DNA of 64,000 nt, taken from positions 68,510,001 through 68,574,000 of the forward strand of contig CM060732.1 of NCBI GenBank assembly GCA_030704615.1, written 5' to 3'. Within the stretch, counting starts at the first letter, position 1; the number at the start of each line of letters is the position of its first letter. Source of the DNA: Takakia lepidozioides (Eukaryota > Plantae > Bryophyta). Both the position numbers and the translations under genes were made by a program. This document shows positions 3,891-47,982 of the stretch, piece after piece. The notes under the pieces are model-generated. The model ran no database searches and had not been told where the DNA came from. It saw only the letters and a program-made list of their open reading frames with translations.

Positions 3891-6800
3891 TCGTTGGGTT
3901 GATGAGGTCCTCAAGGATGAGATGATGGGGCAGGATGAGGCCTTGTCATTGACTGAGCAAGCAGGGAGTACTGCTCAAGAGGTTGCGGCATAGCAACCAC
4001 GGGACGCGTCCTCTACCTCTAAGCCCACTGGACTTAAGGTTGCAGTTACGGAGGACAATTGGGAGCCTGACATTGGACCCATTGTCACCGGAGGAGAGAG
4101 ACGACGTATACGGTGGTTCCTGAGGGCTTACAGGAATTGCTTTGCCTTCAATTTGAAGGATTTAGGAGCACTGAAGGGTCAAGAGATTCGCATTGAATTG
4201 ACTACTGACACGCCAATCTTTTGGAGACCCTATAGATACAGTGACATGGAGAGATCCTTGATTCAGATGAGAACTCAGGACCTTTGGGAGGCTGGTTTGG
4301 TGGAGCTATCTGGGGGAGAGTATGCTTCAACCACAGTGATGCCAGCCAAGAAGGATGTCTATGGCAATTGGACAGAGAGACGTATGTGCGGTAATTACCG
4401 ACCTGTAAATCGTCAGACCAAGTCCAATAGGTATGCCATGCCGACACTAGAGGAGATCTTTGATGCCATTGGGCATGCCAAGGTCTTTAGCAGGTTGGAT
4501 TTACGATCCGGATATCACCAGTTGCTGATCAAGGAGGTGGGTAAGCAAAAGACGGCATTCTGGGGGATCAATGAGCACGGGAAGGATTGCCTATACCAGT
4601 GGCGGTTCTTACCATTTGGGCTTAAGAACGCTCCGGCAGAGTTTCAGAGAGTCATGGATAGGATTCTAGCAGGGGTGGAGTTTGCTAGGTGCTACATAGA
4701 TGACATCATCATCTTTAGTGCTACGGTGGAAGAGCATGAGAGACACCTTCAGGGGGTATTTGAGCGCTTGAGGGCGCACGGATTGAAGTTACATCCGGGA
4801 AAGTGCAAGTTTTTCCACAACCAGATTGAGTATCTGGGTCACATGATATATCCTGGAGGATTGGGGGTACAGCAGACTAAGGTAGAGTCCATTGCACAGG
4901 TTCCACGCCCCACTGATGTGAGCCGAGTTCGAGCTTTCATGGGGTTAGCAAACTATTATAGACGGTTTGTTAAGGGATTTAGTGCCATTGTAAAGGCTCT
5001 AACCAAGCTGACCAAGGTGGACCAAGAGTGGCAGTGGGAAGATGAGCAAGAACAAGCTTTTCAAGAGCTCAAGGCGAGGTTGACCTCGGCGCCCATCTTG
5101 AGACGACCTATCAGGGGGCGTCCTTTTCAGCTGCATACAGATTGGAGCATGTTGGGGCTTGGAGCGGTGCTCACACAGGTGGATGATGAGGGAAAAGAGT
5201 TCGTAGTGGCTTATGCTAGCCGCTCGAACAACGTTGCAGAGTCTAAGTATAGCTCATATGAGGGAGAATGCTTAGCTGCAGTGTGGGCCGTGGCACACTT
5301 CAGGTGCTATCTATACGACAATCTCTTCACCCTTGTCACGGATCACCAACCACTCAAGTGGTTGATGGAGTCAGACAAGCTTACGGGGAAGTTTGCACGG
5401 TGGGCACTCATCCTTCAAGAGTATGACTTTCAGGTGGTGCATCGACCGGGTTTGGTCAATTGCAATGCAGATGGGTTGAGTTGCAATCCATGCATGAGCC
5501 AACAGGATGACACTGGAGCTCGGTGGCATGGTGAGACGGACGAGGAGATGGTGCACGGATGGCATGCATCTGCATTTCTGTGTATCTTGGCAGCGGAAGG
5601 CCAGGTTGGACCTGCAACAGGGATGACTGTAGATCAAGTGTCTGAGGACCGTGAGGCCAGCAATAAGCAAGGTGGCGCCAAAGATATACATGAGGATTCA
5701 GTTGTGTTGGACTACCTACGCACTGGAGACACTGCAGCCACTGTGACTGCCAGGAGAGGGATCGGATCCTACAACGAGCCAAGAGGTTCAAGTGGGAGGG
5801 GACACACCTGCTCCGAGTGTGGGAGGATGGTCGAGTGAGGATTGTGCCTCACCCAACACAGCGGGCACAGTTAGTGCGGCATGCCCATGAGGAGTTGGGG
5901 CATTTTGGGGTACGATGCACTCATAGTCTACTGCAGGGGCAGTATTGGTGACGTGGTATGCACACAGAGGTGCAACAATTTGTGGCTAGGTGCATGGTGT
6001 GTGACAGGGTGCGTGCTTCATTCAACGCCCCTACTCGACAATTGCACCCTCTTCCGATCATGGGATTGGGCTACAGGTGGAGTCTTGACTTCACAGGGCC
6101 GTTGCCACTGACCATGCGCCATAACAAGTACGTGTTGGTGATGGTGGAGCACTTCTCCAAGTGGATTGAGTTGGTTCCATTGCCTGATAAGGCTAGTGAG
6201 GGAGCTGCGTATGCATTCTTGGATTGTGTGCTTAGCCGATTCGGTGCTCCAGCTGAGGTACTCACGGACCAAGGGAGAGAGTTCTTGGGGGAGTTTCAAG
6301 CTTTGTGTGACAAGGCCTTGATAGACCACCGCACCACTTCTCGGGATCATCCTGCCGATGGCTTGGCAGAGAGTTCAGACAATAAAAAGGGATTTGCGCA
6401 AGTATGGCTTGCAGAAGGGACACCTAGGAGATTGAGACCTTCAGTTACCCTGGTTAGCCATGGGCTACAGGTTCAGCAAGCAAGCATCACTTGCCTCCTT
6501 CTCACCATACTTTCTTCTCTTTGGCCGAGAGCCGGATTTGCCTACATCCATTCGCAGGGAAGCTGCTACAGTTCTTAACCTTGACGATCCGGACGTGTGG
6601 GCACGTGCATGTGAGCAGCGTGCAGAGTTGTTCAAGAAAGTCATGCCCATGGCTTTCGAGAACCTTGCCATTGCACAACACCGTGATACGTTGAGGTATG
6701 CTACCATACGTGGTGGGGGCTATCGTCCTGGGGTTCGGAGATTCAACCCTGGTGACTATGTCTATCTGCAGCAGACTGCTCCTACGACCTTGGATGTGAC

Positions 6801-6975
6801 TACACCACGTGTTATTTTGAGGGTTCGAGAGGTCTTACCCTCAGGCGTCTTGGTCTTGGAGGGTCGGGATGGCATAACTTGGAAGGACCATGTGCGTAAT
6901 TGTGCGCCATGTCACCTTCCGAATGTCGATGGCAGGATTGACCCAAACCTGGCAGTGGTATCTGCAAGTTTGAGG

Positions 6976-7110
6976 TGCATGTTGTGTGGGTCTGCTAAAG
7001 GGGCAGCCACCATGCTGGTGTGTGATCGATGCTCTAGAGGTTGGCATATGGGATGCTTGACTCCACCTCTTGAGATGGTTCCGGATGGGGATTGGTTATG
7101 TCCACCATGC
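6976..7110 (+). other. PHD finger at the integrase C-terminus
   Basis: CMLCGSAKGAATMLVCDRCSRGWHMGCLTPPLEMVPDGDWLCPPC, a canonical C4HC3 pattern, in frame with the integrase tail (ORF 6460-7119). Confidence 0.92.
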
Positions 7111-7367
7111 ATTGGATAGTGGGAGTGGATACAACCATGGGAGGCTAACAAGAAATGCAAGGCCAAGCTACTAGGAGACCTTGAACACACGAGATCCTGG
7201 CTCAAGTTCACAGATTGCAAGACGGCGACTAACGATGGGGCTACTCTTGTACCCGGCCTCTTGGTCAATAGAGTTTGAGTACAACATGATAGAGGACTTA
7301 GTACGGCTGTGGCTATTACATAGCTATCTAGAGTTAGAGGGACCTATCCACCAGCTAGGGGGGCGAT

Positions 7368-16026: not shown

Positions 16027-18495
16027 TTGTACTCATAAGACGTTGTTTGCCGTAGCCTTGTGGCCATTGACCCCGCGCCCAGTTTGAGCGGGAACAAAAG
16101 GGACAGAACCTACCTCTGTCAGGGGCTGACGTTGGTAGTAAGACTTACCTCCATATAAAGAATTAATCCGGGTTTTCCAGATATCCTCTAGAAATCCCTT
16201 CACACAAGCATCAATCTGCTGTGTGTGATTTGCCCAAAAACTAGGCCTCAGGAGGGCCTGGGCTTTTGGCTCAGCCTCGAGACTTTCAAAATTGGTAAAC
16301 AGGGGTACAGGCACAATTCCCTTAATAGATTTGAAGAGAGCGTCTCTTTGGTGAGAGAACCCCGGACAGTGTATCAGAAAATGAATACTGTCTTCAGATT
16401 GCCACACAACGGGCACTTGAGGTCATCCAAGATGTCCTCCCCCATGTCACAGACTGGAAACAAGTTCAGGGAAGTTTTCTGCCTAACTTCATTTTCATCA
16501 GACAATCTCATGGCAACAGACATGGCTGAGGACACTACAGCCTCTAAGTCAGATTTATCCAGCAGGGTCAAGACTTGCAGATCCAGGTCCAGGTCCTTGA
16601 GGATCTCTTCTACTCTCTTCTGCCAGGACTTAGCCTGTTTGACAGGGCGGTCCTGTTTCCAAGATATAGAGTCGATTAATTTAGGATATCTGGTGTTGGG
16701 CATATGTTGCAGCTGACCCCACCATCTGACCTTGAATTCATCTCGTCGGGAGCTTAAGGACGGAATGCCAAACTCACCCCGAACAGCCACATTGGCTGTT
16801 TTGGAGCATGCTGACATACACTCCTTAAGCACCCCCACTTGAATGGATTCTAGAGACTTAGCCTGGTTGGAGTTATCAACCCATATAGCAGATCCGTACT
16901 CCAAGGCAGGTCTAATAACGCGACAAAGCATGGTTTTCTTAACCTCAGAGTTGACCCCTCTGCAGTGGAAAAATTTAGTGAGCCCCAGCGAAGTCATCCG
17001 CAAACTTAAGGGCTGGTATGGTGGTATCACCCACCCTTAACCCAAATCCCTCACTTTCCACATCCTCGAGGAGTTGATTGATGAAAACATTGAAGAGCAG
17101 AGGGGAGAGAGTACATCTTTGAGCACACCTTGGTCTATGTCAAAGAAGTTGGACTTCTGTCCGTTAACAGTGACACAGCTTTTGGTGTGAGCATACAAGT
17201 TGTGGACAACTCTCCACATCTTTCCCTTGATCCCACAAGACCAGAGGCGGAACCATAGGCCATCTCTCCACACTGTGTCATAAGCCTTTTTGACATCCAG
17301 GAAAAAGACATAAGTGGGTTTCCCTTCTTTTTTCCTTCCCTGGATAATCTGGCTTAGAGTGAAGATATGATCCACACAGCCCCTGTTTCGCCGAAAGCCA
17401 GCTTGGCCTTCGTGGAAACAACCTCTAGACTCCAGATCAACCTCGAGACGAGTACTTATAACTCTGCAGAATGTCTTGCCAACAGCATTGAGGAGCGTGA
17501 TGCCACGGTAGTTCCCCGGTTCTTCTCTGTCACCCTTCTTGTATAGATTGACAATGACCCCCTGTCGCCAGCGAAAGGGGATCATTTCAGTCTTCCAGAT
17601 AAGGTTAAAGAGGAGAACTAGGGCCTCTATCATGGGATCGCCACCATGCTTGATAAGCTCGTTGACAATACCATCAGGTCCACCAGCTTTATATCCATTT
17701 AAATGTTCAATTGCTTCCACAATCTCAGAAGAACTAATGGGAGCATTATAAGCCATTGAAATATACTCCAGTTCATCAGGGCTGTTTTGAATCATAGGAA
17801 CAGTTTTTCCAACCGTGTCCCTCCATTCAGCAGAAGACCCCTCACTGTTAGACCTAGAAGTTCTGCCAAGGATACTGTAAACGTTGAAGGGCCAACCAGA
17901 ATTTCTTGTCATTACCACCATGGTGGTTTGAGTTTATTTCACTGTATAACTTGTCCCAGTATAATTTCTTCTGAGACCTAACAAGCTGATTGATATCTTT
18001 ACGGAGCTGGTAGTACCTCGCCCACAATTCTCTGTTGGTTTCCAAATTGCAGCACTCTTTATAGAGGGCTCGTCTCTCAGCTATCTTGAGTTTAATCTCA
18101 TTAGTCCACCAATTAACTGCTCTACCGCAGACAATTAGTTTCCTCCCAATGATCTTGTCAGCCACGGAGGAAACGAAACTCTCCCAAGAGTCCACTGCTC
18201 TTTCGACTTCATTTCTTGCGTTAACAGAGTGTGACTGAAGTTCTTGGAGCGATTGGACAAAATGAGGGAGAGCCTCTTGCAAGGCCTGGACGTACTCAGC
18301 CTTGACCTCCTCATTGTGGAATTTTTCTATGCGCCACTTCCGAATCGAACGTTTCACAGATCTCTTGGTGGTGGGAAAACACCTTTTGATCTCAGTCCAA
18401 ACCAGGAAGTGGTCAGAGGTACCAATATCAGTTCTGTCGATCAACACATTGGCACACTGGGGGAACAAAATTTTGTCCATTATGATATAGTCCAC
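16027..18495 (-). mobile_element. RTE-group LINE, 5'-truncated and internally deleted, with a 13-bp TSD
   Basis: APE C-terminus (DYI...SDH), RT (GPDGI, NYRGITLL, QAGFR, FLDVKKAYD; YADD block deleted near 17040) and C-terminal CPLC...HFLIHC finger. TSD AATAGGGAATAGA at 16014-16026 and 18496-18508. Confidence 0.92.
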
Positions 18496-25031: not shown

Positions 25032-27088
25032 GGCTGATCGTCTCTCTTCTCTCTCCCCCTTCTGGACTTGCTATGCTTTCTAGCCTCTGCGCTATCTGCA
25101 AGCCAAGAAATAGATGAATGTCCACGATAAAGTGGGACATGTCGATGAACGTAATCTCTATCCGTAGCACGATTGGACGAAACGTGATGACAAAAGGAGG
25201 ATGAAACTAGTCGATGACAAGCAAGTGTGCTGTGCAGTGTGGCCATCCTCTTCCTCGCAGGCAAGTTGGTATCTTGATTACGAGCAGAAGGCCTTGCATT
25301 GTGCATTAGACTGACGGGGGATTCTGTGGATTTGGAAGCGCATGTGCCTTTGCGATGCCTGCGCGGACAGCATTGCAAGTGGTGGTGATGGCGCCCCCCA
25401 AGCCTTTCGCGAAAACGGAGGAAGGTATAGATATAGTGCTGTTTCGGAATTTTGGATCGGTTACGTTTGTGGGTCGAGGCTTCAGAAATTTCTTGACCTA
25501 TATCAGCAGATTTACACTCTTCTGGGTAGAAAAGGTTGTTAGACCAGGAAATTAAGAGGAACGTGTGCACGCCCGGTAGGCACAGCTTTATCAGTTGTTT
25601 CTTCAACATATGGGGCTTAGGGGATATTTTTGTTTTTTTCCCATTCTTTGTGTGTATGAGAGAGAGAGAGAGAGAGAGAGAGTGTGTGTGGCTGTGGACC
25701 CTGTGGGGTACTCTATTTTGGGGGCATGTCACCGGGTTGTCTTCTCATAGAGAGCTGGGAAAGTGTACTTCCAGTTGAAGATGTGCAAGCATTTGAAGGC
25801 TCTCATTAGTGCACTCTTCTAGTTGCCACAGATGTGACACATATTGCTTTGGACTGCAGTGGTGGAGAGCCATGTAATCCGGGGTTAGAGAGAAGAGCAG
25901 AAGGTGCTCTTTTGCTTTTCCTGAGAGATTGGCTACGACATCACATCAGGGGTAACAGGGGCATCTTCCCTGGGATAGTATAATCTTGGAACCTGTTCTG
26001 GGGTTTGGGCCATCCTCCAGGGTACAAGAAACTCATCCCGAACTTGTCATAACGCTCGCCCACAGAAACGCCAAATCGAGTGTTTGATGTACGAGTTGGT
26101 GTTATTACCCCTTCTAGTAACCACAACTGGTTTTATTCCCGAATCTGGCAAAAGATCAGACAATGCCAGTCACACAACCTCTAAGAAAGGCTGAGAGCTC
26201 AGCCAAAATAAATTATGTCCACTACGGCGAGGACCTGTATAATTTACACAGAAAGGGAAAACCTTTGGAAAGCTGCACCGGTACTACTCTACAATAAGTT
26301 CTTAGACATCTTCAGCTGCTAAAGATCTTTCACTGTATTTGCATGCAGGCCTAACAATGAACACAGAACAGGTTTGGCAGGAGTTCAGATCTGATCCTCC
26401 GAGGTGGTGGGACAGCAGCTTTGATAAGGTGGTCATATCTGCACCCAAATCTTTTTTGGTTTCTAAGATTGATCTTTTTTAATTGAAGTGGGCATGGTGA
26501 CGTTTTGGTGGACCAACCGTCAGTTCCTCAGAAGAATAACACTGATGGTCTTTATTTGCCGACCTGCCATTCTTGTTATATGCATCAGTAGGCTGTTAGT
26601 GCACAGAAGCATAGCAGTTGTTTGTTCGCCGTAGTTTAGTGTGGTGGTTACAGTGGTCTATGTGAGGCACATTAAAGCTCTGTTTCAGCTGCAGACTGGT
26701 GGTTTTCAAAGTCCGAAATACCTGGACTACAAACATAAGCATGCAAAGGAGGTACTTTGGATTGAGAGCACGTCAAACCCCCAGCGGGTGAAAGCAGAGC
26801 TGGACACTTTGACACAAGGTTGAGCACTATCTGGTGGCAGTTCCTTATTTCTGACATCCATGGAAAGATAGTGTGAGTGCTTTAAATGATGATGCTGATT
26901 CAAATGCTCAACTTCAGATAGATGGACGTGGTTGCAGTTTTGCTCAATGCAGGTGACCTCAGTTTTGCTCTGATAGTCAACAGAGCCTGTCCTCATGAAG
27001 AAATCTTTTGTGAAGTAAATACACGTTTGATAAGTTTTTCCGGGTTTGTTTCATTAAGTCTGCAACTAATAGTTTTGACTTCCACAGG

Positions 27089-28585
27089 ATGGCAGGGTTG
27101 AATCAGGCACTGTGGTTTGTTGGACATCAGACTGGTTGTAGGGGTTGCACCTTCACCGTGACCACGTCATTGGCAAGAGGGCACAGAGAGGGAGACAACA
27201 AGATTTTTTCTGGCTCTGAGGGGGATTTGAGGGCATTGTGTAAAGGTGGACGGTTGAAAGAGGCACTCCACATATTGAGTCAACGAGGCATTCAGGCAGA
27301 CTCCAATACTTACGTCTGCCTCTTGCAGGGTTGCATCAACAGGAAAGCCCTGGTGCAGGGAAGGCAGGTGCATGCCCACATTAAACAAAGTGGATTGAAG
27401 CCAGACAGCTTTCTATTCAATGTTATTATCAACATGTATGCTAAATGTGGGAGCGTAAAGGATGCACGTCAAGTGTTCGATCATATGGTGAAACGAGATG
27501 TGGTATCATGGAATTCAATGATAGCAGGATATGCCCGGCATGGCCCTGGTGAAGAGGCTTTCAATATCTATGGGCGAATGCAACGGGAAGGGGTGGCACC
27601 CAACAGAGTCACGTTCATTTGTGTTCTGAATGTCTGTGCGAGCCTAGGAACCCTGGAAAAGGGTAAGGAGGTCCATGCTGACATCAGGAAGAGTGGAATC
27701 GCACCAGACATCATTCTAGAGAACGCCCTTGTTGACATGTATGCTAAATGCGGAGGCATAGAGGACGCCCATCAAGTGTTTGACCATATGGCTAAACACG
27801 ATGTGGTTTCATGGACTTCGATGATTACAGGGTATGCCCAGCATGGCCCCATTGAAGAGTCTTTCAAAATCTATACACAGATGCAACTGGAAGGTGTAAC
27901 ACCCAACACCATCACATTCACTTGCATTCTCAACACGTGTGCCAGCCTTGGAGCCCTGGGAAAGGGCAAGCAGGTCCATGCTGACATCAACAAATGGGGA
28001 ATCAGGACAGATATCATTCTGGACAATACCCTTGTGGACATGTACGCCAAATGTGGGAGTATTGAGGATGCACGTCAAGTGTTCGACGGTATGGCTAATC
28101 GAGATGTCATCACATGGACTGCAATGATTGCAGGATATGCCCAGCATGGGCACGGTAAGGAAGCCCTCCAACTGTTTGAACTATTGCCAAAGGAAGGCTT
28201 GAAGCCAGACTTTACCTCCTTCACATCTGTTCTCTCTGCATGCAGCCATGCAGGCCTAGTGGATGAAGGTCATCACTACTTTGATTCAATGAGTCAATGT
28301 CATGGTCTGATACCCACAATGGAGCATGTTGGCTGCATGGTGGACCTCCTTGGCCGTGCAGGGTGTCTGCATGAGGCAGAGAACTTCATTAAAAAACTGC
28401 CAATTCAACCTGGTGTAGTGGTGTGGAAGGCCTTGCTAGGTGCCTGCAAAATTCATGATGATGTGGAGCTAGCAGAACGTGCTGCAAAATGCATTCTTGA
28501 GCTGGAGCCACTGGAGTCTGCAGCTTTTGAGCTGCTATCCAACATTCATACTGCTTGGGCAGGTGGGATGATAAAGCGAAGGTGA
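27089..28585 (+). CDS. PLS-class pentatricopeptide repeat protein with E domain (organellar RNA-editing factor type)
   Basis: Repeated L-S-P triplets (NALVDMYAKCG / DVVSWxxMIAGYAQHG / PNxVTFxCVLxxC), then HVGCMVDLLGRAG and WKALLGACKIH. Confidence 0.9.
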   Translation: MAGLNQALWFVGHQTGCRGCTFTVTTSLARGHREGDNKIFSGSEGDLRALCKGGRLKEALHILSQRGIQADSNTYVCLLQGCINRKALVQGRQVHAHIKQSGLKPDSFLFNVIINMYAKCGSVKDARQVFDHMVKRDVVSWNSMIAGYARHGPGEEAFNIYGRMQREGVAPNRVTFICVLNVCASLGTLEKGKEVHADIRKSGIAPDIILENALVDMYAKCGGIEDAHQVFDHMAKHDVVSWTSMITGYAQHGPIEESFKIYTQMQLEGVTPNTITFTCILNTCASLGALGKGKQVHADINKWGIRTDIILDNTLVDMYAKCGSIEDARQVFDGMANRDVITWTAMIAGYAQHGHGKEALQLFELLPKEGLKPDFTSFTSVLSACSHAGLVDEGHHYFDSMSQCHGLIPTMEHVGCMVDLLGRAGCLHEAENFIKKLPIQPGVVVWKALLGACKIHDDVELAERAAKCILELEPLESAAFELLSNIHTAWAGGMIKRR

Positions 28586-33480: not shown

Positions 33481-34108
33481 TTCGAGGAGCTTTGGTGGAC
33501 AATGTTGAAGAGCTCTTGAAGGATTGATTGAGGGATATTGAAGGATACTTGCCACGGCCATACAAGCGAGTGGATAGAGACAGGAGGGAGAGTGGTGGAT
33601 GAGAGCATTCTGGGGTTAGGAATTGCTTTAGTTTCTCTTCTCCATAGTTTTTCACCCTCTCTGTAGGCCAAAACCTTTCCGTAGGTGGAGGCAAGAGTCA
33701 GTCCGGGTTTGGGCTGGGGTGTCCTTGCAGGAGCGACACTGTGGAGTGTTTTTGGTGTGGGGGAGTTGCTGTCTTGATTTTCTTGTGTTTGGATCCCCTC
33801 CACACCTGCATGCTTGACTGTGCGCCATGTTAGCTTTGTGTGGGCGCTTGTTTTCATAGGAGGTTGGTCCGGATTTGATCACCGGCCAATCCTAGAGTAT
33901 GCTATCGGTGATGAGGCTGGAGTGATGACCAGCAAGACCACCAGTGTTTCTTCTATGGTGAGACTGGGTTGATGACTAGCCAACCATAGGAGTTCTTGCG
34001 GTGGATGCAGGTGCAGGTGCCCTGAGCCATTGGGATATGACCCTTAAACTGCAACAGGTGCCCACCCGTGTCACTATTAGAATTAGTACTAGAGCCTTAT
34101 AGTGTCAC

Positions 34109-37100
34109 GTGGGGGAGGTGCACATTGTGAGTGTCATCACGGAGTTACCCAGGGGTTCTGAGGGGAGTACGGCTACAGGCAGTAGCAGTGAGAGTGGGTT
34201 CACCAGACGAGGTGTTCGTTTCAGACCACCTTCACCTCCACCCTCAACTAGTGCAGAGTCAGACACAGACTCAGAGGCTTCATCAACAGGTGTGCAGTTT
34301 TATTCGCCATTGTTGTGGGACGACATGGAGGAGATGTATGGAGCTACCAAGGGGCCTCGTACGTACTCTGGAGCTGTGGGCACAATCGAGTTGGATGACT
34401 TTATCCAGGAGTTCGACAGCTGGTGTGATTTGCAGCAGATGCGCAATCCACAGCTATTCACCCCATTCATGGCGTGGAAGGGACTGTTCCAGCATTTGGA
34501 AGGCCCGCCTATGGACGATTACCACGATTTCAGGCGAGGACATGAAGCAGAGATTGAGGAGTGGAGGACGTATTGGTCACCTGACTACGTCTCCATTACT
34601 CGAGGCACGACGCGACCAGTAGCTGCATCAGTACCAATATCTCCCACTGCCAGCACTAGTAGTGGAACAAGTGGTGCCGGTACTTCTGCAGGTGGTACCA
34701 GTTCAAAAGGTGCTACTACTCCTCCTGCCACGACTACAACACATGTGCCTAGATTCAACCCGGTGATGGAGTTCTTCCAGGAGTTGCGGAGGAACTACCA
34801 AGGTGTACGGACTGAGAAGCTGCGAAGTTTGCAAGACTTCCAGCGCAAACCCAGTGAGAGCTTGCGAGAGGCGTACACTCGTATGAGGCGCTTGATAAGT
34901 GTGACCTAAGGGGTTACTGAAGCTCATGCAATCCAGTTTTGGTATGGAATTCTGGACAAGGAGCTCAGGAGAAGGGTGCGAGATGCAACCCTGTTACAAG
35001 CAGCCCAACCCACATAAGCAGATGTGTTTCTGCTGGCTGAGCGGATTGAGCTCAACATGGTGGAGGAGCGAGTTGTTACCATTGGATTTGGCAAGGACAT
35101 GCCTGCACGAGGTGTAGCTGCCAGCCCACAGGCACAAGGGACTGCCCAACAGCGTGGTCAGGGGGGCAAGGTTTCCCAACCCAAGTTCCATGGAGCTTAC
35201 AGGGGACCTCAGGTGCAGAAGCCCGTGGCATCTTTTGCAGACCAACAACAATCAGGGGTGATATGTTGGACATGTGGAGGACCCCATGTCAAGAAAGATT
35301 GCCCAGAGAGTGGCAAAAGGCCGGCACAAGCATAGCCTACACAATTGTCATGTGGGCATTGTGGCAAGTATGGGCATGGAAATGCCTGGTGTTATGACTT
35401 GCATCCTGAGTTGCGCCCAGGCCAGTTCCAAGGGAACACTGGTGGCCGGGGGCGAGGTGGACCAGCCCAAAGAGGACGAGGTGGCCGGGCACGAGGCGCA
35501 GGCCAAGGGCAAGCTCAACATGGCCAAGGACGCGGAGGTTAGGGTGTTGACCAAGGCATGGCCAACCGGCTCCAGCAGCTAGAGCAGAGGCTTGCTACCA
35601 TGGCTACAGCTCAGGTGGTACCAGCTCCCAGGCGGGATGGTCCACCTCTTGCTCCTGAGGGAGGAGATATGGGAGGCATGGGATTCATGTGCGGAGCAGC
35701 ACTACCACTAGTGCAAGTGGAGTCTGCTGCAGCCGTGACTCGAGGACCAGCACGAGTTTCTGAGCCACGAGGTGCAGAGGTGGAATTGGATCCACAGCGT
35801 GGGGAGGCAAGCCGTCAGGCGAGGCTTCCTCAGTCATTCACATTGGCGGAGACAGTGTCGACGCCATCCATGACACCTAGTTCTCGCCCGACTGTTACCG
35901 AGGCGGAGGTTACTATGCCATTGGGGAGAGCTACACGTCCAACACTGAACCTACTACCAAGGCTAGTGCAAGCCGGTGTGTTATTGGGGGCAGCCACCTT
36001 TGTGTGTCAAGCCCCACTATTCTCGGCAACCATGATTGCGACACCGGGGGTAAGATCAGCTGCAGTGTTCAGACTAGCAGCAACACTATGTGAGAGTGGG
36101 GAGATCACTTCATCTTCTGCGGAGTTATTGGAAGGTGTAGTGGCAGAGGGATCCTCGGATTTGAGGGTCAAGACTGCCACGACTGCGCCATGGCAAGCTG
36201 CAGCTGCCAGGTTGACGGAGCTGCCAGCTAGGCTAGCCTTTGAGCGCGCCATGGTGACACCTGGAGTTGTCTTGTTAGACAACCAGGGAGGCATTTTCAC
36301 TTTGAGTGGACCGGCAGGCAAGAAGTACCGGCCACTGCGGGTCTTGTTGGACTCAGGAGCTCAACCACTGATGTTGGGCAGAGCTGCTATTGCAGGTTTG
36401 GGCCTCATGGAGGCGGATATGGAGCCTTGTCCTTTCCAGATACAGACATCCCTGGGAGGATCAGAGCAGGCTCGGGGCATGACACGGCGTGAGTTGGCCA
36501 TTGGACTACAACCAGATCATCATGTAGATGGCTTAGTGATGCGAGCCAAGGCCATTGTGACAGACACGGTCTTTTACGATGTCCTTGTTGGTGGGGGCAG
36601 TGTTATATCCCATGGGCTTCACCCTAGACTTTTGGGAGGAGTCAGCATCCTATAGGCCTGGATGACAGTCAGGGGATGGTCGTCGTGCACAGCTCACTGT
36701 GACATTCATTGGGGGGATTGCGGCTGCCCAGCGGGGCAAGATGCCAACACTAGCCGCCTTTACAGCTGCAGTTAGTTGGCCTGGAGAGTTGCTGGAAGGC
36801 AATGCCCATGCAGATGAGGTGCCATCTCCAGCAGAGCAGGATGATATGCATGGTACGGCAGAGTTGCGTGCCATGGTTGTTCACACTCCATTATGGGGTA
36901 CGAGCAAGGATTTGCAGCAGGCTGCTGATGGACGGGTACAACAAGCCTGGGTAGAGGCCTTCGTACCATCAGGAGAAGAGGAGAGTGCGGTGATTGCACC
37001 AGGACCACCTCAGTTGTTGCCATTAGACACAACACCTCTTATGTGGCAGTGCCCGGATGAAGGCATATGCCTTCTGGACTTGTTTGGCGGGATCAGCACT

Positions 37101-37157
37101 GGATTGGCTGCAGTACTGCAGGCAGGTGTACGAGTTCGACGTTACCTGTATGTAGAG
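34109..37157 (+). mobile_element. Ty3/Gypsy-like 5' half: Gag, two zinc knuckles, aspartic protease and the start of a DNMT3-like C5 methyltransferase
   Basis: Gag (FIQEFDSWC, LQDFQRKPSESLREAYTR), CWTCGGPHVKKDC, CGHCGKYGHGNAWC, VLLDSGA at ~36350, and ICLLDLFGGISTGLAAVLQAGVRVRRYLYVE at 37065-37157. In-frame stops present. Confidence 0.8.
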
Positions 37158-39066
37158 GAAATTGCGGGAAAGGAAGCTGTATGCCAAAGCTTCAAAGTGC
37201 GAATTCGGGGTCACAAATGGAGTTCCTAGGGCATGTGATTACACATGATGGGATCAAAATGGATGACAGAAAGCTGAGGGCAATCTTGGACTGGGAGCCT
37301 CCGACTTCGGTCCCAGGAGTGCGATCCTTCTTAAGACTCGCCTCCTATTACCAAAAGTATGTGAGAAATTTCGTCAAGATCACGGGAGTTTTGGCGCCAC
37401 TATGTTGGTTCCAACCCGGTAAAGGTGTTCACAAACAATGTTACGGTGAAGTATTTTGCCACACAGCCTAAATTGTCCCCAAAACAAATTAGGTGACAAG
37501 ACACTTTGGCAGTGTTCGACGTGGATATCTAGTACAAACCGGGACGAGACAATGTGGTGGCCGATGCTTTAAGTAGAAAGCAGCAACTCATGTTGGTGTA
37601 CATGGATGAGACGACGCTCCAAAGGAAGATCCGGAAGGCTTACCAGAAGGATGAGATACGAAGTCCGTGATGCGGGACTTGAGGATGGGGGTTAAATCGC
37701 AGTTCCACTTGCAAAATATACTGCTCCGGTACAAGCAAAAGCGTCTCTACGTGCCGAAGGGAGGGATTAGAGATAGTCTCTTGAGAGAATGTCATGATGG
37801 CCCGCTTGCGGGCCACGGCGGAGCCAAGCACACCGTGGCACTCTTGAAGAAAAAGTATTTATGGCCCAAACTGAGGGAGGAGGCCGAGGAGTATGTCAAG
37901 ACATGCACCACACGCCAACAAAACCGGAACGAATACAAAAAGCAAGCGGGGCTGTTAGAACCTTTGTGGATTCCAGAGGGGTCTTGGGAAAGTGTCTTGA
38001 TGGATTTCATGACTGTTATGCCACTGTCAAAAAGATTCGATGCAATCATGGTGGTGGTGGATAGGTTCAGTAAAATGGGCCATTTCATCCCCACCAAGGA
38101 GACGGCAACGGAGCAGGAGACGGAGCGACTTTGCTTCGCCCACGTCTTCAAGCATCATGGATTCCCGAAGGATATTCTCTCTTACCGCGATCCAAAGTTT
38201 ACAAGTAAATTTTGGAAGGCACTTTGGAAGAAAATGGGGACGAGGCTCAAGATGAGCACCGCCTTCTGACCTACGACGGACAACCAAACGGAAAGGGTGA
38301 ATTCCGTGGTGAAGCAGATCTTGCGGAATTACGTATCGGCAGACCAATCGGACTGGGTGGAGCACTTGGATGCGGCAGAGTTCTGTTATAATAACACAAA
38401 ACATTCCGCAACGGGAGTTTCCCCTTTCGTATTGGTCTATGGAAAAGCACCTCTGGTGCCGACAAGTTAGGCCGCCCAAGACGTTGAGGAACCGGCAGCA
38501 GTAGCGGTGCTGGAAGAACGCGAGCGTTTGTTGAAGCTCGCAAAGTACAACATTACCAAAGCTAGGAAACAGTATGAACGGCAGACGAATCGGAAACGGA
38601 GGGAAGTTAAGTTTGAGGCAGGCACGGAGGTCTGGTTGAACATCAAGAATTTTTAACTACCTCCGGAAGTGAGTCCGAAGTTCGTACCTCCGTATGCGGG
38701 GCCCTTTCGCATCCGGAAGGTTATGAATGAGGATGTGTATGAATCGGAGCTGCCGGCAAACAACAAGGTGCATCCGGTATTCCACGTCTCTTTTTTGAAG
38801 CCTTACTTCAAAGATGAAGCGCGTCCGAATCGGCGTCAAGTGTTGCGTCCGCCACCTATGCTGTTGGATCATGAAAATGAACCTGAGTAAGAGGTGGAGG
38901 CAGTGCTTAAGTCGAGGAGGTTCAAGAATCGAGAAACGGAGTATCTCGTGAAATGGAAGGGTTATCATCAAGTGGAGGCAACTTGGGTGCGTGCCTCAGA
39001 AATGGGAAACGCATCTGAGGCGGTTACAGCTTTCGAAGAGCGACCTCAAAAGTGGAAGAAGCGTTG
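37158..39066 (+). mobile_element. Chromovirus-type Ty3/Gypsy 3' half (RT end, largely deleted RNase H, integrase, chromodomain)
   Basis: KLYAKASKCEF, FLGHVIT, NVVADALSRK, HDGPLAGHGG, VVVDRFSK, GPF motif, and chromodomain EVEAVL...EYLVKWKGY...ATW (~38890-39045). Confidence 0.9.
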
Positions 39067-41132
39067 ATGGGGACATCAACCCTCGCTTTGATGCACGCGT
39101 CTAACTTCCAAACTGGCCGCCGGGCCAACTCGGAGCTTCGGCTGCTCACCAGGACATAACGGTCCTCTTTGCTCCTCCACAAGACCCCTCTCTCAATTTG
39201 GGCCTAGTAGAAATTCCCTTTGGTTGTTAGCAGTCCGGAACAACTCCCCACACCTTTGTCGCTTTCCGGCTCGCACGCTTATTCATTAGTTTTTGGTCAC
39301 CAACGGGCTTGCACCGTTCTCGGGGTTACTACTCCCTATATATACTTCTGTGACTGTCCACGGAGGTTTCACAAACAACGCCATCCTTTTATGGCGAACC
39401 ACCACGAAAACCCTCGATTCCCTGGTGATGAGTCGCGGTGAGTCTTGGCCCACCCACCACGGCCCCATTGGACCGTGATAAGTCCCAAGACTTCCCCACG
39501 ACTCCCACCACAAGGTCTCCGCCCCATGGTGAGTCCTATGCCACCCCCACTAAGACCCACTAAGCTACCACCACTCCTCGTGGATCCACCCCCACCGCAA
39601 CCCGGTGTGCGGGGCTCCACCTAGTGAGTGCCTCCGTCTCCTTGAGTGCCTTGGGCACTCAAGGGTGCTTCAGCCCCCGTTCCTATTGTTGCCAGTGCCC
39701 CCACCACAGGTGCAGCCCCTCTTGTGTCCCGACCCCCTGCCCTCAAGGCAAAGGGGCACGACATACACCCTACCAACAGGAAGTCGATGTCCTCATCGAC
39801 TTGTCCATTTTGTAGAAACGAACATCCAAGTTGTGGCGTCCCACATCAAGGAGTTTGTTTCCGTACCATGGCGTCCCATGGCAAAGAACCAAACCCCCAC
39901 TTGACTCAACTCTCCACTAGCTAGTTCGGCCAACTTCCTCCGAGTCCCGGCCAAGGGTGGAGCCTCTCAAGCTCATCCCAGTGCACTCTTCAAGGCCAAG
40001 GAATGATCCTCCCCGAGGAGCGGATCGCCTTATTGCAACAACAATGCTTGCGACCGCTCATGATGCCGCTTTTGGCATCACCTTGTGCAAAGGTTCACCT
40101 TGAACCCTTTTTTGACTAGGAAGATAACCTTCAACCAACCGTGCGCCCCAATCAGTACAATTAGGTCCGCCTTTGAATGCTGGCTTGAGGTACGGGAACA
40201 CGCCGAAGCCGCACGAGGCTACACGATTATAGTACGTGAACGGAAGCACGTAGCTTCTGCGTTAGCCCGCACTACAAGGCAACCCTCTCGGTAGCGCAGT
40301 TATAATACACGCACGCGCCAGGTGCGCACTAGCATATGAACTCCCAAAGAAGGCGCAAGTTTCCTTGCCCATTGGATAGGAGTCACCCAATTTCGGCACT
40401 GCGCAAACACACGATTAATCCAATTTACCTCTCCTACTTTTGTAAGCTAGCATGCATCCTACACACTAGCCAACCATACCATGCATCATCATTCCAAACA
40501 AAATAGGAAGCACAACATTTGGAAAACGTTTCATTTATAACAAAATTTGTACAACACAAGTTTTTGCAATCGGATTCCTGAGCTAGCTAAGCCGGGCTAA
40601 GCATGCATTTTCTCTCGGGAACAGGGGAGCAAGCCGTGTTCCATAGGGCAAAGAGGGGAGGGAGGACCGGGAACAGGAGAGTGAGCCGTGTGCCATGCGA
40701 GGACCAAGAACAAGAACATGGGAACGAGGATAAGGGATAGGGATAGGGAGTGGGAACAATGAGGGGAGAGAGGTAACAGGGGAGCGTAGCCACGATCTTG
40801 GAATTAGGATTATTTTCGAGATGAAAAAGTATATTTATCAGTCGCATTTGCGATTCAATCAGTCAAGGTGATTTCACTGCAACGGTTTAAACCTCAGACC
40901 TCCTCTTCGTAGTACTCACCACCTGGCCACCACACTACCATTTCACTTCTAGCCTCATCTTTGATTTCCTAATGCTTTATTCTACAAATATAGGCTCGCA
41001 AGTGAGAGGGGAGCAAAGGGGGGTGGGGATTTGACAGTGCGCCCCGCCGGAACGCCGCCACTACGGTCATCCCCGGCGACCGTACCAGCAAGGCTCCCAC
41101 GCTTGCATTCAACTCGTCGGGTAAGCGTAGTC

Positions 41133-41471: not shown

Positions 41472-42619
41472 CTGGGCTGTCTTTGTCTTAATATCCTACA
41501 GTGAATGCATGTTTGATATGGGTCTGAGTTGTATTGGGCACTCTTCAAAGTGATGTATACCATGTATGGACTGCAATCTGGAACACTATGGGCCGCTATC
41601 TGGCAGGCCCATTCCCTGTTGCATGGTGGACCTTAAGCTCTGAGCCTCTCCTGGGCAGGCTGAATTTCAGTGTGGAAGTTCTTTGTGGATGACTTGTTTC
41701 AAACCCTGTATTTGTCTCTTGTGCGTTTGTTCCCAGTGAGCTGTCCTTGACCAGGCACTTTTTCCAGGCGACAACTCTTGGTTTTGATGAAGGTAAATCA
41801 TCACGTTCTCCACTATCTACACATTGGAGTTTTGAGCGATTTTTGAGATAACACCTCAAATTTTAAAACCCTAAACCCTGAGTTCAAAAACTTAAAAGTG
41901 GAGCTGTGACAAAAGTTCACAGCCTGATTCAATGCTGAATTTACTCATACCACAATTATGGCTGGTGCCTGTGGGTTATGCGTCAGATTTGCTTTACAAG
42001 GATGTTGGCTGGCTTCCTTCCTTTAGTAGAGTATTGGGGCAGACTTAACTCCTCAATTAGTTAACCCTACCTTGTTTCCACCATCTCTGATCCATCTTGA
42101 TAACCTTTTACCATATTAGTGGGTGTGTATTGGACTCCAGAGTGTCCACTATTGGGAAAAGGTTGTTTAACTCATAATGATAAGCTTTCTGGCCTTCTTG
42201 CAGATTTAGATATAACAAGATCTGTGTGGAGTGCGCGGGAGCAAGAAGACAGAGGCTCTGGACAATACTTTGGTGGGTACTCTGGAATCTTGAATTAGCA
42301 AAACATCCGCTCAGTCCTAGTCGGTACCATGTTCTTAGTTGCTTATACATCTCCAAAAAACTTCCAGAGGCATTCAGTCTCCCTCGGACGTGAAAGGTGA
42401 CTGAGGCCTCTTATCCTAGGTCCCAATCATGGCCATAATCTGCTGAAGCTTTTAGGCACATGCAAGGAGCAAAGATAGATGCCACATTGCAGCCTTCCTT
42501 GTCTACTTTGCATGTTCTTATCCTCAGTTGTGAAAATGGCACAACTGTACATGACTTGTTGTTTACCTTTTTGTTTTTTGTTTGCTCCTCTGAATTCATA
42601 TAGGTGTTGCTTGGGTTCT
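41472..42619 (+). pseudogene. Partial genomic duplicate (introns and exons) of the INTS1-like gene
   Basis: Near-identical to 60327-61513. The exon DLDITRSVWSAREQED is frameshifted here. Confidence 0.88.
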
Positions 42620-42642: not shown

Positions 42643-43720
42643 TCACCAATAATCCCCACAAGAACATGCACCATTCTTGAAGTGATGAAAGCGGTTGGTG
42701 TCCTTTGCAGCAATTTCTTGTCCAACAATCTTGGAGATAAACTTGGTGGCACTGTGGCAATCACTGCACACCCGAAGGTTCTTAAATATATGGATAGGTG
42801 TCCCAGGGGGTGTGCTAATTAGGCTGAAAGCAATGGCCAACTTTTCACTGTGGTGGCAAAGGGCCTGTTCCGTATGCTGCTGCTCGACATCATGCATCAC
42901 AAACCGTGTGTCTGGCACATATCCCACCTCCTTTATCTGCCTAGTCAATCTCTCTAACTCTGCATGGATTTTCTTTGCTCATGGGTGTGATCTACTCTAC
43001 GGTGAAAGTATGCACCCTGTTGTTGACCTGAATCCAGCTGCACCCTGGCTCTTTTCTGACCCCTCTGTCCTTCATTGTTTTTCTTACGTTTGCTACATTA
43101 TCCCACCTGCCAGCCACAGCATAGATGTTTGACAGCAGCACATACACGGCAGCGTTTTGTGGTTGCCACTTGAGAGAGCACAGTCTGCAACCCGTTCAGC
43201 CAGCTCCACATTGCCATAAATTCTGCAGGCACCAAGCAAGGCCCCCATACAGCAGCACCTGGTTCAAATGGCATGCCGTGAATAAACTCCTCTGCCTCAT
43301 CCAAATGCCCTGCACGGCCAAAGAAGGTCAACTATGCAGCCATAGTGTTGTTCTGTTGGTGTGATGCCATAATCTCGACTCATGGAATGGAAGATAGCCT
43401 TCATCCACTAGGCCCATATGGCTGCATGCAGATAGAACACCAATAAATGTGACAATGTCTGGAGGCACTCCTTCCGATTGCATTTGGTCAAAGGTGTGGC
43501 CAGCCTCCTTACCATGCCCATGCTGGGCATTTCCACCAATCATCACGTTCCATGAGACGACATCTCGATTAATAATCCACACTTGGAATACATCTCCACA
43601 AGTACACGCAAACATCTGACTCAAATCCAGATCGCAGGAAGTAGGCAGGCACTCGCTTGCCCTCGTCCAGGGCAGCTATGCTGGTACATGCAGTGAGGAT
43701 GCTTATGAAAGTGACCTTGT
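42643..43720 (-). pseudogene. 5'-truncated PLS-PPR-DYW pseudogene with an open DYW domain
   Basis: HHSEKLAIAF...KNLRVCSDCH...CSCGDYW* (42948-42643). Upstream PPR/E repeats are frameshifted. Confidence 0.88.
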
Positions 43721-47069: not shown

Positions 47070-47982
47070 CAGCGCGCCATTATGAGATCATGTTCCTGAT
47101 TCATGAAGACTTCTTTGAGGATGTCCAAACAGTCATTAAAAAGGTTCAAGGTATTTTGTGCATCCTTCATGTCATCATTTCTTCAACCACATGACTCTTA
47201 CCCTGCCTCTTTTAATTCCTTGAGCTGGTAGAGCTTGGCAAGATAGGGAAGGCAAGCGGACACGAGTAATAAGGGCGTATATCCTTTAACTAACAGCATT
47301 GCAATGGAAAAGTCTTACAAGCTGGCTATCATCATGTGCGATCAAACGTGCTGCTCTTGCTGACATAGAGACCTAAGTGTGGGATCTCTCAGATTCATCT
47401 TTTCTGATATTGGCATTACTGTTCCTCTCGTGTTACCTGATTCTGGTGTTCTATATGGCCGCTCAGGCTACTTTACTGCATGGGTGGGATCTCTCAGATT
47501 CATCTTTTCTGATATTGGCATTACTGTTCCTCTCGTGTTACCTGATTCTGGTGTTCTATATGGCCGCTCAGGCTACTTTACTGCATGGCAGTAAGAGTGG
47601 AGGGGTTGACATCTTGTGTTGTGAGTTTTGTGGTGCAGACTTCATTGCAGAAAAGAAAGGAAAAGTCTGGAGGTTGAATGACTGGGGTTTAAGGCGTCTT
47701 TGTTATAAAATCAAGAAGGCAAACAAAGCCTACTATGTGCTAATGAACATAGAAATCAGCTCACAGGCTATCAACCAGCTTAATACCTTGCTCGAGAAGG
47801 ATGAGCGAGTGATTCGGCACATGTGTATTACCCAAAAGGAAGCCATCACAGCAGCCTGTGAACCTCCTCCTGAATATTTCCCTGAGGCTGACCCTGGCAG
47901 CGACAAGGACAATGACGACTCTGAAAAGGAGGAAGAGGAAGAGGAGGAAGAAGACCCAGTGCTTCAAGAACAATCAAGTTGA
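47070..47982 (+). CDS. RFC3: bS6-domain plastid protein RFC3-like (core exons ~47070-47150 and ~47639-47982; 5' exons probably ~45950-46420, unresolved)
   Basis: RHYEIMFLIHED...KVQ|DFIAEKKGKVWRLNDWGLRRLCYKIKKA...YVLMN...DERVIRH...PPPEY followed by an acidic tail. Confidence 0.8.
47379..47588. repeat. Perfect 105-bp tandem duplication inside the RFC3-like intron
   Basis: 47379-47483 is identical to 47484-47588. Confidence 0.92.

Follow-up and report, generated by a model that had tools for sequence, protein, structure and literature searches.

A truncated Ty3/gypsy copy and its fuller relatives point to a retrotransposon-borne DNMT3-like methyltransferase in land plants

A decayed Gag-protease fragment ending in a methyltransferase stub

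Within the window, by which we mean the whole 64 kb stretch of DNA analyzed here, we investigated the interval 34103-37157, for which a preliminary description had reported a Gag region, two CCHC zinc knuckles and a DSG protease followed on the same strand by the beginning of a cytosine methyltransferase. All of these features were recovered on the + strand, 5' of the peptide ICLLDLFGGISTGLAAVLQAGVRVRRYLYVE, which is the translation of 37065-37157. The Gag region with its two knuckles (34103..35542, +) was delimited using open reading frames, translation, tblastn and weak Pfam matches to Retrotrans_gag and zf-CCHC; the Gag match itself (PF03732, E 0.0078) falls below the Pfam cut-off. This region is 50% identical to the Marchantia protein P0006 over 774 aligned columns, and residues 1-728 of that protein align by tblastn to 34325-36619. 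The knuckles, each of the form C-x2-C-x4-H-x4-C, occupy 35264-35302 and 35351-35392 (+). They are followed by a spacer and an aspartic protease (35543..36655, +), assigned by Pfam, tblastn and a tree. The protease match (PF13650, Asp_protease_2, about 36329-36544) has an E value of 0.0011, below the cut-off, and LLDSGA is found at about 36344-36361 (+). A tree of the protease region grouped the window copy with the Marchantia/Sphagnum clade (SH-aLRT 100). A Gag with CCHC knuckles followed by an aspartic protease is among the features by which Ty3/gypsy elements are recognized.

Four in-frame stops, at 34907, 35015, 35333 and 35540, break the Gag region, and a frameshift lies between about 36585 and 36655, where the tblastn alignment passes from frame 2 to frame 3 (36585-36619). 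Most contigs that represent further copies within this organism have a different letter at the four stop positions, so that the stops are private to the window copy. Given four in-frame stops and one frameshift, this copy is therefore dead: it is a fossil, itself without any function. No LTR pair was found when direct repeats around 34103-39067 or 3991-7116 were searched for within the window. Run X7, which is only guessed to be RNA, contained contigs of 669 and 559 letters on 34423-35091 and 36330-36889. Elsewhere in the window lies a PPR gene of the PLS type, including an E motif, whose named best matches are all from land plants, at 44-54% identity, which marks the window as land-plant DNA.

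Downstream of the protease, a linker (36666-37037, +) leads in the frame of the methyltransferase peptide into the start of a DNMT3-like domain (37038-37157, +), both within a stop-to-stop open reading frame of 187 aa (36666-37229) that contains 37065-37157. The AdoMet-binding F-x-G-x-G loop, motif I, reads DLFGGISTG at about 37077-37103 and is followed by YLYVE; its columns are invariant in an alignment of the window sequence with 12 relatives (13 sequences). The preliminary description had estimated that only about 33 residues of the domain survive, which is close, although the homology spans about 40, from 37038 to 37157/37160. The rest of the domain was absent across the 64 kb (tblastn, E < 0.1), and motif IV, the ENV motif VI and motifs VIII, IX and X were not found in the window. 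Scanned alone, the 187-aa frame gave no PF00145 match at E <= 1, hence none above the gathering cut-off. Its identification as a putative methylase depends on its relatives and not on the window frame alone. Searched against 5.8 billion database proteins, the same frame matched one from Calypogeia fissa at E 3.1e-38 and retrieved 17 proteins at E <= 0.001, including 12 from Marchantia and 2 from Calypogeia. As judged from these E values, the resemblance to the relatives far exceeds chance.

The stub ends at 37157|37158, which the loose ends of contigs identify as a junction of two different repeat families. Past 37157, 55 contigs in run X1, 31 in X2 and 2 in X6 continue, in the same frame, as the next methylase residues of the relatives. 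The contigs of X1 and X2 therefore reveal fuller copies in the same organism. On the other side, 20 contigs (X1) and 24 (X2) carry, 5' of 37158, the upstream RT sequence of a chromodomain family, as do 17 further contigs (X2) listed before 37159. What follows the junction is a 5'-truncated chromodomain Gypsy fragment (37158..39067, +), assigned by Pfam, which retains the tails of RT and RNase H, an integrase (37655-38470), an SH3-like domain (38657-38890) and a chromodomain (38891-39067), and which contains frameshifts. Its Pfam matches are Integrase_H2C2 (1.2e-16), SH3_Tf2-1 (3.1e-11) and Chromo (1.1e-13). Its RT is 39-41% identical to that of the methyltransferase-bearing family (P0017, P0022), compared with 63-74% for the fragment at 4057-5745. 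The RT, integrase and chromodomain 3' of 37158 thus come from another element rather than representing the Pol of the DNMT family.

That RT of higher identity belongs to a second, separate piece of the DNMT family (3991..7116, +), running from RT to a PHD finger and assigned by Pfam and the RT tree. It includes an in-frame TAG (3991-3993) followed by CAA CCA, and continues into an open RT-RNase H frame of 614 aa (3994-5835) and an integrase at about 5694-6575, in which the frame changes; a PHD finger at about 6976-7110 forms the C-terminus (all +). The domains were recognized as RVT_1 (8.8e-30), RT_RNaseH (2.6e-35), rve (9.1e-16) and PHD (4.3e-11). The RT is sister to that of Marchantia P0017 (78% identity, SH-aLRT 99). 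The order RT, RNase H, integrase, which characterizes Ty3/gypsy, is found at 3994-7116 and in the relatives and is absent from the 5' fragment at 34103-37157. A homology search for the tail of ORF1 upstream of 3991 returned nothing significant; the left edge of this second fragment is therefore known only as <=3991.

The complete domain in fuller relatives

We next consider the relatives, in which the stretch represented by the stub continues into a complete C5-methyltransferase domain. Such relatives were found in Marchantia polymorpha (18 protein clusters), Calypogeia fissa (2) and Sphagnum fallax (1), as well as in many further contigs. A search with the methyltransferase domain alone retrieved 73 proteins, including the Sphagnum fallax one; among the named matches of this search and of that with the open reading frame there was no Klebsormidium nitens protein. 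In the ESM Atlas, the nearest cluster was a Streptophyta methylase-domain cluster. Across 78 proteins, the domain lies between protease and RT, or after the protease where RT is not included, in 39, and between RNase H and integrase, in the order RT-RNase H-DNMT-integrase-PHD, in 27 plus 11, with 1 ambiguous. The Marchantia, Calypogeia and Sphagnum relatives show the protease-DNMT(-RT) order within one protein. Proteins of this type formed one group in the DNMT tree (29/30 rows, SH-aLRT 99) and again in the RT tree (SH-aLRT 97 and 93), so that the two trees agree. Most of the related copies have decayed; of 32 metagenome loci in which the domain is nearly full, just 5 are free of stops. Two intact metagenome elements (L018 and L023) consist of a single Gag-protease-DNMT frame, one in-frame stop, and RT-RNase H-integrase-PHD, and another relative (L031) is bounded by an LTR pair (1676-1975 / 10350-10649) that is 92% identical. 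Together, these sequence comparisons support a land-plant Gypsy-type LTR family that encodes a DNMT3-like C5 methyltransferase directly 3' of its protease.

The DNMT3 affinity was measured on this family domain and not on the window stub. The relatives' domain contains motifs I, IV (PC), VI (ENV), VIII, IX and X. Across 64 domain sequences, the catalytic Cys is kept in 63 and the Glu and Asn of ENV in all 64, the Arg of motif VIII in 63-64, ERE..G of motif IX in 61-63 and G..D of motif X in 61-62. Motif IV reads PC in 46/64 domains and EC in 16/64; PCQ occurs in 28 of the 30 rows of the protease-DNMT type. The motifs follow one another linearly (I-IV-VI-VIII-IX-X), without the rearrangement of the DRM type, and the HMMER alignment is colinear with DNMT3A. 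When a profile of the domain was searched against the PDB, DNMT3A, DNMT3B and DNMT3C matched with E values of 2e-10 to 1e-6, followed by DNMT2 (1.3e-4), HaeIII (2e-4) and DRM (5e-4 to 0.15); neither DNMT1 nor CMT was among the matches listed at E <= 1. Similarly, a predicted model of the domain (pLDDT 94.4) gave a best Foldseek match at E 1.6e-19 (TM 0.72/0.80), and the best 49 matches were all DNMT3A, DNMT3B or DNMT3C. Judged by sequence and predicted fold, the family domain is closest to these three among the solved methyltransferases. No Pfam match to PWWP or ADD was detected in 27 distinct relatives, in which the domain is flanked by the protease and by RT or integrase.

The domain also bears a signature of selection. 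Its dN/dS was 0.13 for one pair of elements (L018-L024, dS 0.26) and 0.12, 0.10 and 0.18 for others, rising to 0.24 in saturated pairs; the value for RT-RNase H was 0.05. These ratios indicate purifying selection over the whole domain.

These results bear out most of what had been proposed from the window. The peptide had been read as motifs I-II of a DNMT3-type C5 methyltransferase, and the relatives do continue into a full DNMT3-like domain (best E 2e-10 by sequence and 1.6e-19 by fold). A PF00145 scan had been suggested for the consensus; of the 14 relatives scanned (from the 17), 12 matched at E <= 0.01, 11 above and 1 below the cut-off, and 2 did not. Among the findings named as fatal to the idea were that other copies lack downstream motifs and that the segment is single-copy; instead, the relatives carry motifs IV-X and the segment is multi-copy in contigs of the same organism. 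The proposal that a land-plant LTR family encodes its own methyltransferase also stands, with the exception of its location "within Pol". In intact relatives, the methylase forms the end of the Gag-protease frame, upstream of a conserved stop, and is not inside Pol proper.

The conserved stop and alternative explanations

That stop was found at the same position before RT in all 39 loci that include the start of RT (26 TAG, 13 TAA), and the codon after it is CAA or CAG in 37 of them. In murine leukemia virus, Pol is expressed by read-through of the UAG between gag and pol, and the read-through context of tobacco mosaic virus is UAG-CAR-YYA. As in these systems, a single in-frame stop divides one frame and is followed by CAA or CAG; the DNMT family differs in that the stop comes after both protease and methyltransferase. 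The strict CAR-YYA context is present only in 5 of the 39 loci and in the window, while most copies have CAA CCC, off at the last letter.

We consider it very probable, from sequence comparison, that 34103-37157 is a dead, truncated 5' piece of a Ty3/gypsy family whose fuller liverwort and peat-moss relatives carry a whole DNMT3-like methyltransferase between protease and RT. In active copies, the enzyme, predicted to methylate DNA cytosines, would probably form the C-terminal end of a Gag-protease-methyltransferase polyprotein, from which the protease may release it. Conservation of the stop suggests that Pol could be produced by read-through. The methyltransferase might act on the element's cDNA or on chromatin, and the PHD finger of the integrase might read histone tails and thereby guide integration.

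Several other explanations were weighed against this one. A peptide that resembles motif I by chance, or that stems from a single capture of part of a host DNMT gene and is no feature of a transposon family, would fit a 187-aa frame that Pfam does not recognize as a methylase and a window that holds motifs I-II only. We rejected this candidate, to which we give practically no credence: the frame's match at E 3.1e-38 is to relatives that run on into the full domain, the protease-linker-DNMT order recurs in 39 proteins, and the 55, 31 and 2 contigs of other copies extend beyond 37157. Moreover, MpDNMT3b of the host is encoded by another gene, Mp5g09290, according to a preprint (10.1101/2021.02.12.428880). 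The junction raises two further possibilities. The DNMT-bearing 5' half and the chromovirus 3' half lie on the same strand in gag-to-integrase order, and each of the two families is present in many copies in the organism (44,237 contigs placed in run X1), as would be expected if the two halves together formed a recombinant family that itself transposes. The join, however, is out of frame and lacks most of RT, dozens of contigs diverge from the window sequence on both sides of it, and at 97% likeness none of the contigs listed spans it, with a summed depth of 360 in the bin over the join against 89,227 and 67,294 in the bins beside it. We regard such a recombinant family as very improbable. The lack of bridging contigs at 97% likeness among those listed could also reflect an assembly artifact that glued together two repeat families, in which case the DNMT element would continue in the real genome; high-copy repeats lie on both sides. 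Contigs of 31-99 letters rarely bridge repeats, however, so that their absence over the join says little. In other respects the copy looks like any decayed fragment, with stops of its own, and no further part of the domain lies nearby, which makes an artifact unlikely, if less so than a recombinant family.

A different question is whether the DNMT3-like domain, conserved as it is, is still a DNA methyltransferase, or instead a DNA- or chromatin-binding module or an enzyme acting on RNA. Three observations lean toward such a loss: in a 2018 study, yeast expressing the Gypsy DNMT3 domain of Klebsormidium showed no methylation (PMC5890265), EC replaces PC in motif IV of 16/64 domains, and PWWP and ADD domains are missing. 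Against it, 63-64 of the 64 domains retain the Cys of catalysis, ENV and the Arg of motif VIII, with PCQ in 28/30 rows of the protease-DNMT type, the whole domain is under purifying selection, and its predicted fold is that of active DNMT3 enzymes. Dinoflagellate retrotransposon DNMT3 domains, as described in the same text (PMC5890265), do methylate CG in yeast. On balance, we consider a domain without this activity rather unlikely, though the most credible of the alternatives.

Known retrotransposon-borne methyltransferases and implications for land plants

The closest known system is KnitGypsy-Dnmt3 of Klebsormidium nitens, a retrotransposon of the Gypsy type that encodes, as part of its polyprotein, a non-rearranged DNMT3-type domain with conserved key residues and Ka/Ks < 0.2 (de Mendoza et al. 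2018, PMC5890265). In that study, the case concerns one alga, with acquisition in the K. nitens lineage, a domain in the Pol ORF and DIRS-like repeats, and the authors call the negative yeast result inconclusive. The family described here resembles it in combining a Gypsy element with a DNMT3 domain in streptophyte hosts, with conserved residues and dN/dS of 0.10-0.24. It differs, as far as the published description allows comparison, in its land-plant hosts (Marchantia, Calypogeia, Sphagnum and the plant of the window), in the position of the domain between protease and RT, 5' of the in-frame stop, and in the ordinary LTRs of one relative.

The same text (PMC5890265) describes two dinoflagellate systems, SymbioDIRS-Dnmt3 and SymbioLINE-Dnmt, of which the former is of the DNMT3 type, performs de novo CG methylation in yeast and shows two domain orders in one family. 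These share with our family a retrotransposon-encoded DNMT, of DNMT3 type in the DIRS elements, but they are tyrosine recombinase DIRS elements and LINEs, and their hosts are of an unrelated lineage. Host DNMT3 enzymes (human DNMT3A/3B, mouse DNMT3C, and plant DNMT3 such as MpDNMT3b) have the same catalytic motif order and fold; the family domain is only about 21-23% identical to them over the fold alignment, lacks PWWP and ADD, and is embedded in a Gag-protease polyprotein of an element with a PHD finger on its integrase. Chromoviruses share the backbone of Gag, protease, RT, RNase H and integrase, as well as a chromatin-reader module at the integrase C-terminus, which in the DNMT family is a PHD finger and not a chromodomain.

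In the openly accessible literature searched, we found no published report of a Gypsy-DNMT3 in land plants or of the protease-DNMT-RT order, and no mention of the gene identifiers of six Marchantia copies. DNMT-encoding retrotransposons appeared there only in the 2018 paper (PMC5890265) and in a 2026 preprint citing "streptophytes (Gypsy-DNMT3)". Neither Marchantia nor Sphagnum appears in the species tables of the 2018 paper or in those of Sarre et al. 2025 (PMC12344493). Such elements may be mentioned in subscription articles, above all the one on the Marchantia genome, or in Repbase.

A bolder reading, which we hold as possible but doubtful, is that land plants including Marchantia polymorpha host a Ty3/gypsy lineage that makes an active DNMT3-type enzyme at Gag-level abundance, as Gag-protease-DNMT before a leaky stop, together with a PHD-finger integrase. 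The enzyme might write 5mC on the element's own cDNA or insertion sites, shaping its own epigenetic fate and possibly that of the host. The DNMT would have moved once between two polyprotein positions, protease|RT in land plants and RNase H|integrase in relatives whose only species-labeled member is a green alga. If so, the capture would be far older and wider than the one Klebsormidium case so far described.

So far, retrotransposon-borne enzymes of this kind, whose purpose is a matter of debate, have been described in dinoflagellates and a single charophyte alga only. The DNMT family would extend the retrotransposon-borne silencing enzyme to land plants, including Marchantia. Several gene models of Marchantia in which a DNA methylase domain is annotated (e.g., Mp4g09160, Mp8g17980) are transposon polyproteins and not host methyltransferases. 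Marchantia is routinely studied by knock-out, methylome mapping and expression analysis, so that what a transposon gains from its own DNMT3 would become directly testable, with the conserved stop that places the methyltransferase in the abundant Gag-protease product and the PHD finger of the integrase as handles.

A methyltransferase start shared with other bryophyte retrotransposons

The peptide that the preliminary description had reported is the exact translation of positions 37065–37157 on the forward strand (31 residues), and lies in a stop-to-stop open reading frame (ORF) of 187 aa (36666–37229, +). Gag, two CCHC knuckles and the protease lie upstream on the same strand, as had been described. 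ORFs and translation placed Gag, both C-x2-C-x4-H-x4-C knuckles (35264–35302 and 35351–35392, +) and the LLDSGA protease in one frame (34103–36655) holding four in-frame stops (34907, 35015, 35333 and 35540, +), and a frame change at about 36585–36655, located by translation and by tblastn with related proteins, leads into the peptide ORF. By Pfam, the Gag, knuckle and protease matches in the window were weak, and no methylase domain was detected in the 187-aa ORF.

A protein search with this ORF returned 17 proteins at E ≤ 0.001 (best 3.1e-38), with Marchantia polymorpha (12) and Calypogeia fissa (2) among the source names. The alignment showed that the window linker and the DLFGGISTGLAAVLQ stretch are common to these relatives, which past the shared stretch carry GWPCQG, ILENV, RAHRxRLWWTN, ERERAMGF and GQAMD in succession. 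PF00145 was found at E ≤ 0.01 in 12 of the 14 relatives (out of 17) covered by a Pfam scan, 11 of these 12 lying above the curated cut-off. Since relatives sharing linker and peptide run on into a PF00145 domain, the peptide is the start of a C5-methyltransferase, as proposed. Searching again with just the Marchantia domain as query gave 73 proteins, including Sphagnum fallax, many metagenome proteins and one named green alga, Monoraphidium. In a tree, the window protease region fell within the Marchantia/Sphagnum group (SH-aLRT 100).

The assignment to the DNMT3 type was borne out by both a profile and a structural search. A profile of the first alignment, run against all PDB sequences, ranked DNMT3A, 3B and 3C first (E 2e-10 to 1e-6), with DNMT2 (1.3e-4), M.HaeIII (2e-4) and plant DRM (5e-4 to 0.15) behind them; DNMT1 and chromomethylase gave no PDB match at E ≤ 1 in this search. 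Using an alignment of 32 rows, we also folded the domain of one intact metagenome copy (mean pLDDT 94.4, pTM 0.92), and every Foldseek match listed for this predicted model, down to rank 49, was a DNMT3 catalytic domain (best E 1.6e-19, TM 0.72/0.80). The motif order of the family domain is linear, unlike that of DRM, and Pfam found no PWWP or ADD domains in the scanned relatives. Judged from profile and predicted model, the label "DNMT3-like" should thus be read as naming the nearest solved relatives, not clade membership.

The joint at 37157|37158 and the decay of the window copy

Homology to the relatives ended at 37157–37160 by tblastn, which found the rest of the methylase domain nowhere in the 64 kb. 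From there, Pfam recovered an RT tail, an RNase H (RH) tail, an integrase (INT), an SH3-like domain and a chromodomain (37158–39067, +), and this RT is only 39–41% identical to that of the DNMT family. The segment is a different, 5'-truncated chromovirus and not the Pol of the DNMT element. The chromodomain Gypsy fragment also occurs in very many copies in the organism, and in many other chromovirus copies two additional bases follow 37217, the point at which the window frame breaks.

We placed contigs of the same organism's public sequencing runs (X1, X2 and X6) on 34000–39200 at 80% likeness, and both sides of the joint proved highly repeated (44,237 contigs placed from X1 and 17,966 from X2). 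Just behind 37157, 55 contigs of X1, 31 of X2 and 2 of X6 depart from the window; their next letters read RDETARRVSL in the window frame, the sequence that follows VE in the related proteins P0003 and P0004 (RDEIARQVSL in P0002). Position 37158 is reached from other letters by 20 contigs of X1 and 24 of X2, and 37159 by 17 of X2, and the contigs entering there encode the ...EHLKRVF part of an RT. Because contigs diverge on both sides, 37157|37158 marks the point where two families meet, and because contigs run past 37157, fuller DNMT copies exist in the same organism. Other copies thus continue into the methylase, whose later motifs the relatives hold. Raising the likeness to 97% left a summed depth of 360 over the joint, versus about 67,000–89,000 beside it, and none of the contigs listed bridged it. 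This joint has not spread as a unit, and there is a small probability that it is an assembly join.

Most other copies have a different letter at each of the four stops, so that these are private to the window copy. The window locus is a fossil: a 5' fragment with many stops, which ends after motif II and abuts another element. Across 34000–39200 (X1, X2 and X6), the window mostly carries A/T where other copies carry G/C (in X1, window to others, A>G 107 and T>C 71 versus C>T 46 and G>A 49), a pattern that would be expected if methylated cytosines had been lost by deamination in the window copy.

Family anatomy, in-frame stop and domain orders

The family anatomy was drawn from 79 loci of one scan of metagenome contigs. 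Two intact loci, L018 and L023, encode Gag with two knuckles, protease (PR), linker and DNMT in a single frame (1,359 codons in L018), followed by one TAG and then RT, RNase H, integrase and a PHD finger. Counting stops at, or a few codons from, the same place, all 39 loci holding the RT start have an in-frame stop between DNMT and RT (26 TAG, 13 TAA), followed in 37 by CAA or CAG. The bases after this codon are CC/TT; in L044 and L051 the CAA is replaced by TAA or TAG. The strict CAR-YYA context, that of tobacco mosaic virus read-through, lies behind the stop in five loci and the window, and CAA CCC in 32. From these sequences we infer a programmed read-through of the conserved stop. The placement of the enzyme after the protease in the preliminary description therefore holds, whereas its placement within Pol does not, the enzyme lying between protease and stop. 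The LTR pair of locus L031 is 92% alike. Most copies are decayed (5 of the 32 loci having a near-full domain are without a stop).

A second fragment of the family (3991–7116, +), 27 kb upstream of the Gag-PR-DNMT piece, comprises TAG, RT-RNase H, integrase with frame changes and PHD. Its RT-RNase H ORF (3994–5835) is open (614 aa, 63–74% identity to Marchantia copies), is directly preceded by TAG CAA CCA at 3991–3999, and is followed by the integrase and a PHD finger ending at about 7110; a 27-row RT tree placed it as sister to Marchantia P0017 (78% identity, SH-aLRT 99). The methylase core is in neither family fragment of the window.

Among the 78 proteins of both searches, 39 had the order PR-DNMT(-RT), including all named Marchantia, Calypogeia and Sphagnum proteins, and 27 the order RT-RH-DNMT-INT-PHD (the first and second kind); 11 read DNMT-INT-PHD with the start missing, and one was unclear. 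The DNMT tree held 64 rows (60 proteins covering at least 260 profile positions and four intact loci), leaving out 18 shorter proteins, Sphagnum among them. In it, 29 of 30 first-kind rows formed one group (SH-aLRT 99), the long-branched P0078 standing apart, and the RT tree split the two kinds likewise. This agreement indicates that the methylase travelled with the element, and the simplest reading of the sequences would be one move of the methylase between two polyprotein positions. The catalytic Cys is kept in 63 of the 64 domains, Glu and Asn of ENV in all 64, and the motif VIII arginines in 63–64. Motif IV reads EC in place of PC in 16 of the 64, 15 of them second-kind; this unusual change beside the catalytic cysteine, Glu-Cys for Pro-Cys, thus marks 15 of 34 second-kind domains (proteins P0039–P0079). 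Between intact copies, pairwise dN/dS of the DNMT domain was 0.13 at dS 0.26 and 0.10–0.24 in more saturated pairs; for RT-RNase H it was 0.05.

Genomic setting and relation to known elements

The window ORFs include, by Pfam, a UDP-glycosyltransferase (12810–13562, +), ribosomal protein S6 (47377–47979, +), another reverse transcriptase fragment (17040–17933, −) and a zf-C17orf113 zinc finger (55842–56324, −). An intron-less PLS-type PPR gene with an E motif (27014–28582, +) has land plants throughout as its named best matches (Diphasiastrum, Adiantum, Sphagnum, conifers and Ginkgo, 44–54% identity), and a shorter PPR ORF lies at 43331–43675 (−). Direct repeats at 41499–42591 and 60359–61484 (95–99% alike, 18.9 kb apart) could be the two LTRs of an element that is large or nested. 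Tandem repeats, 85–100% alike, occupy 231–811 (units of 102–116 bases), 47379–47588 (105 bases) and 56975–57452 (about 105–144 bases).

De Mendoza et al. 2018 (PMC5890265) describe a Klebsormidium nitens Gypsy element bearing DNMT3, which they regard as gained within that lineage and for which Ka/Ks was < 0.2 and no activity was seen in yeast, an assay that its authors deem inconclusive; the text and supplements examined make no mention of Marchantia or Sphagnum. A 2026 preprint cites "streptophytes (Gypsy-DNMT3)" as prior knowledge, and Sarre et al. 2025 (PMC12344493) refer to DNMT3 within retrotransposons "as previously reported", one supplementary table having no Marchantia row. The host MpDNMT3b is Mp5g09290 (preprint 10.1101/2021.02.12.428880), and is not among the transposon copies. 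We found no report of a DNMT-Gypsy family in land plants in the open literature, subscription papers and repeat libraries being outside this scope.

The activity and purpose of the family's enzyme, a methyltransferase predicted from sequence, are what we infer. Relatives and fuller copies show the overall reading to have been correct: this is a Gypsy family of land plants with a DNMT3-type methyltransferase, and it differs from known Gypsy-DNMT3 elements as a variant found in land plants, with the enzyme between protease and in-frame stop and a PHD finger on the integrase.
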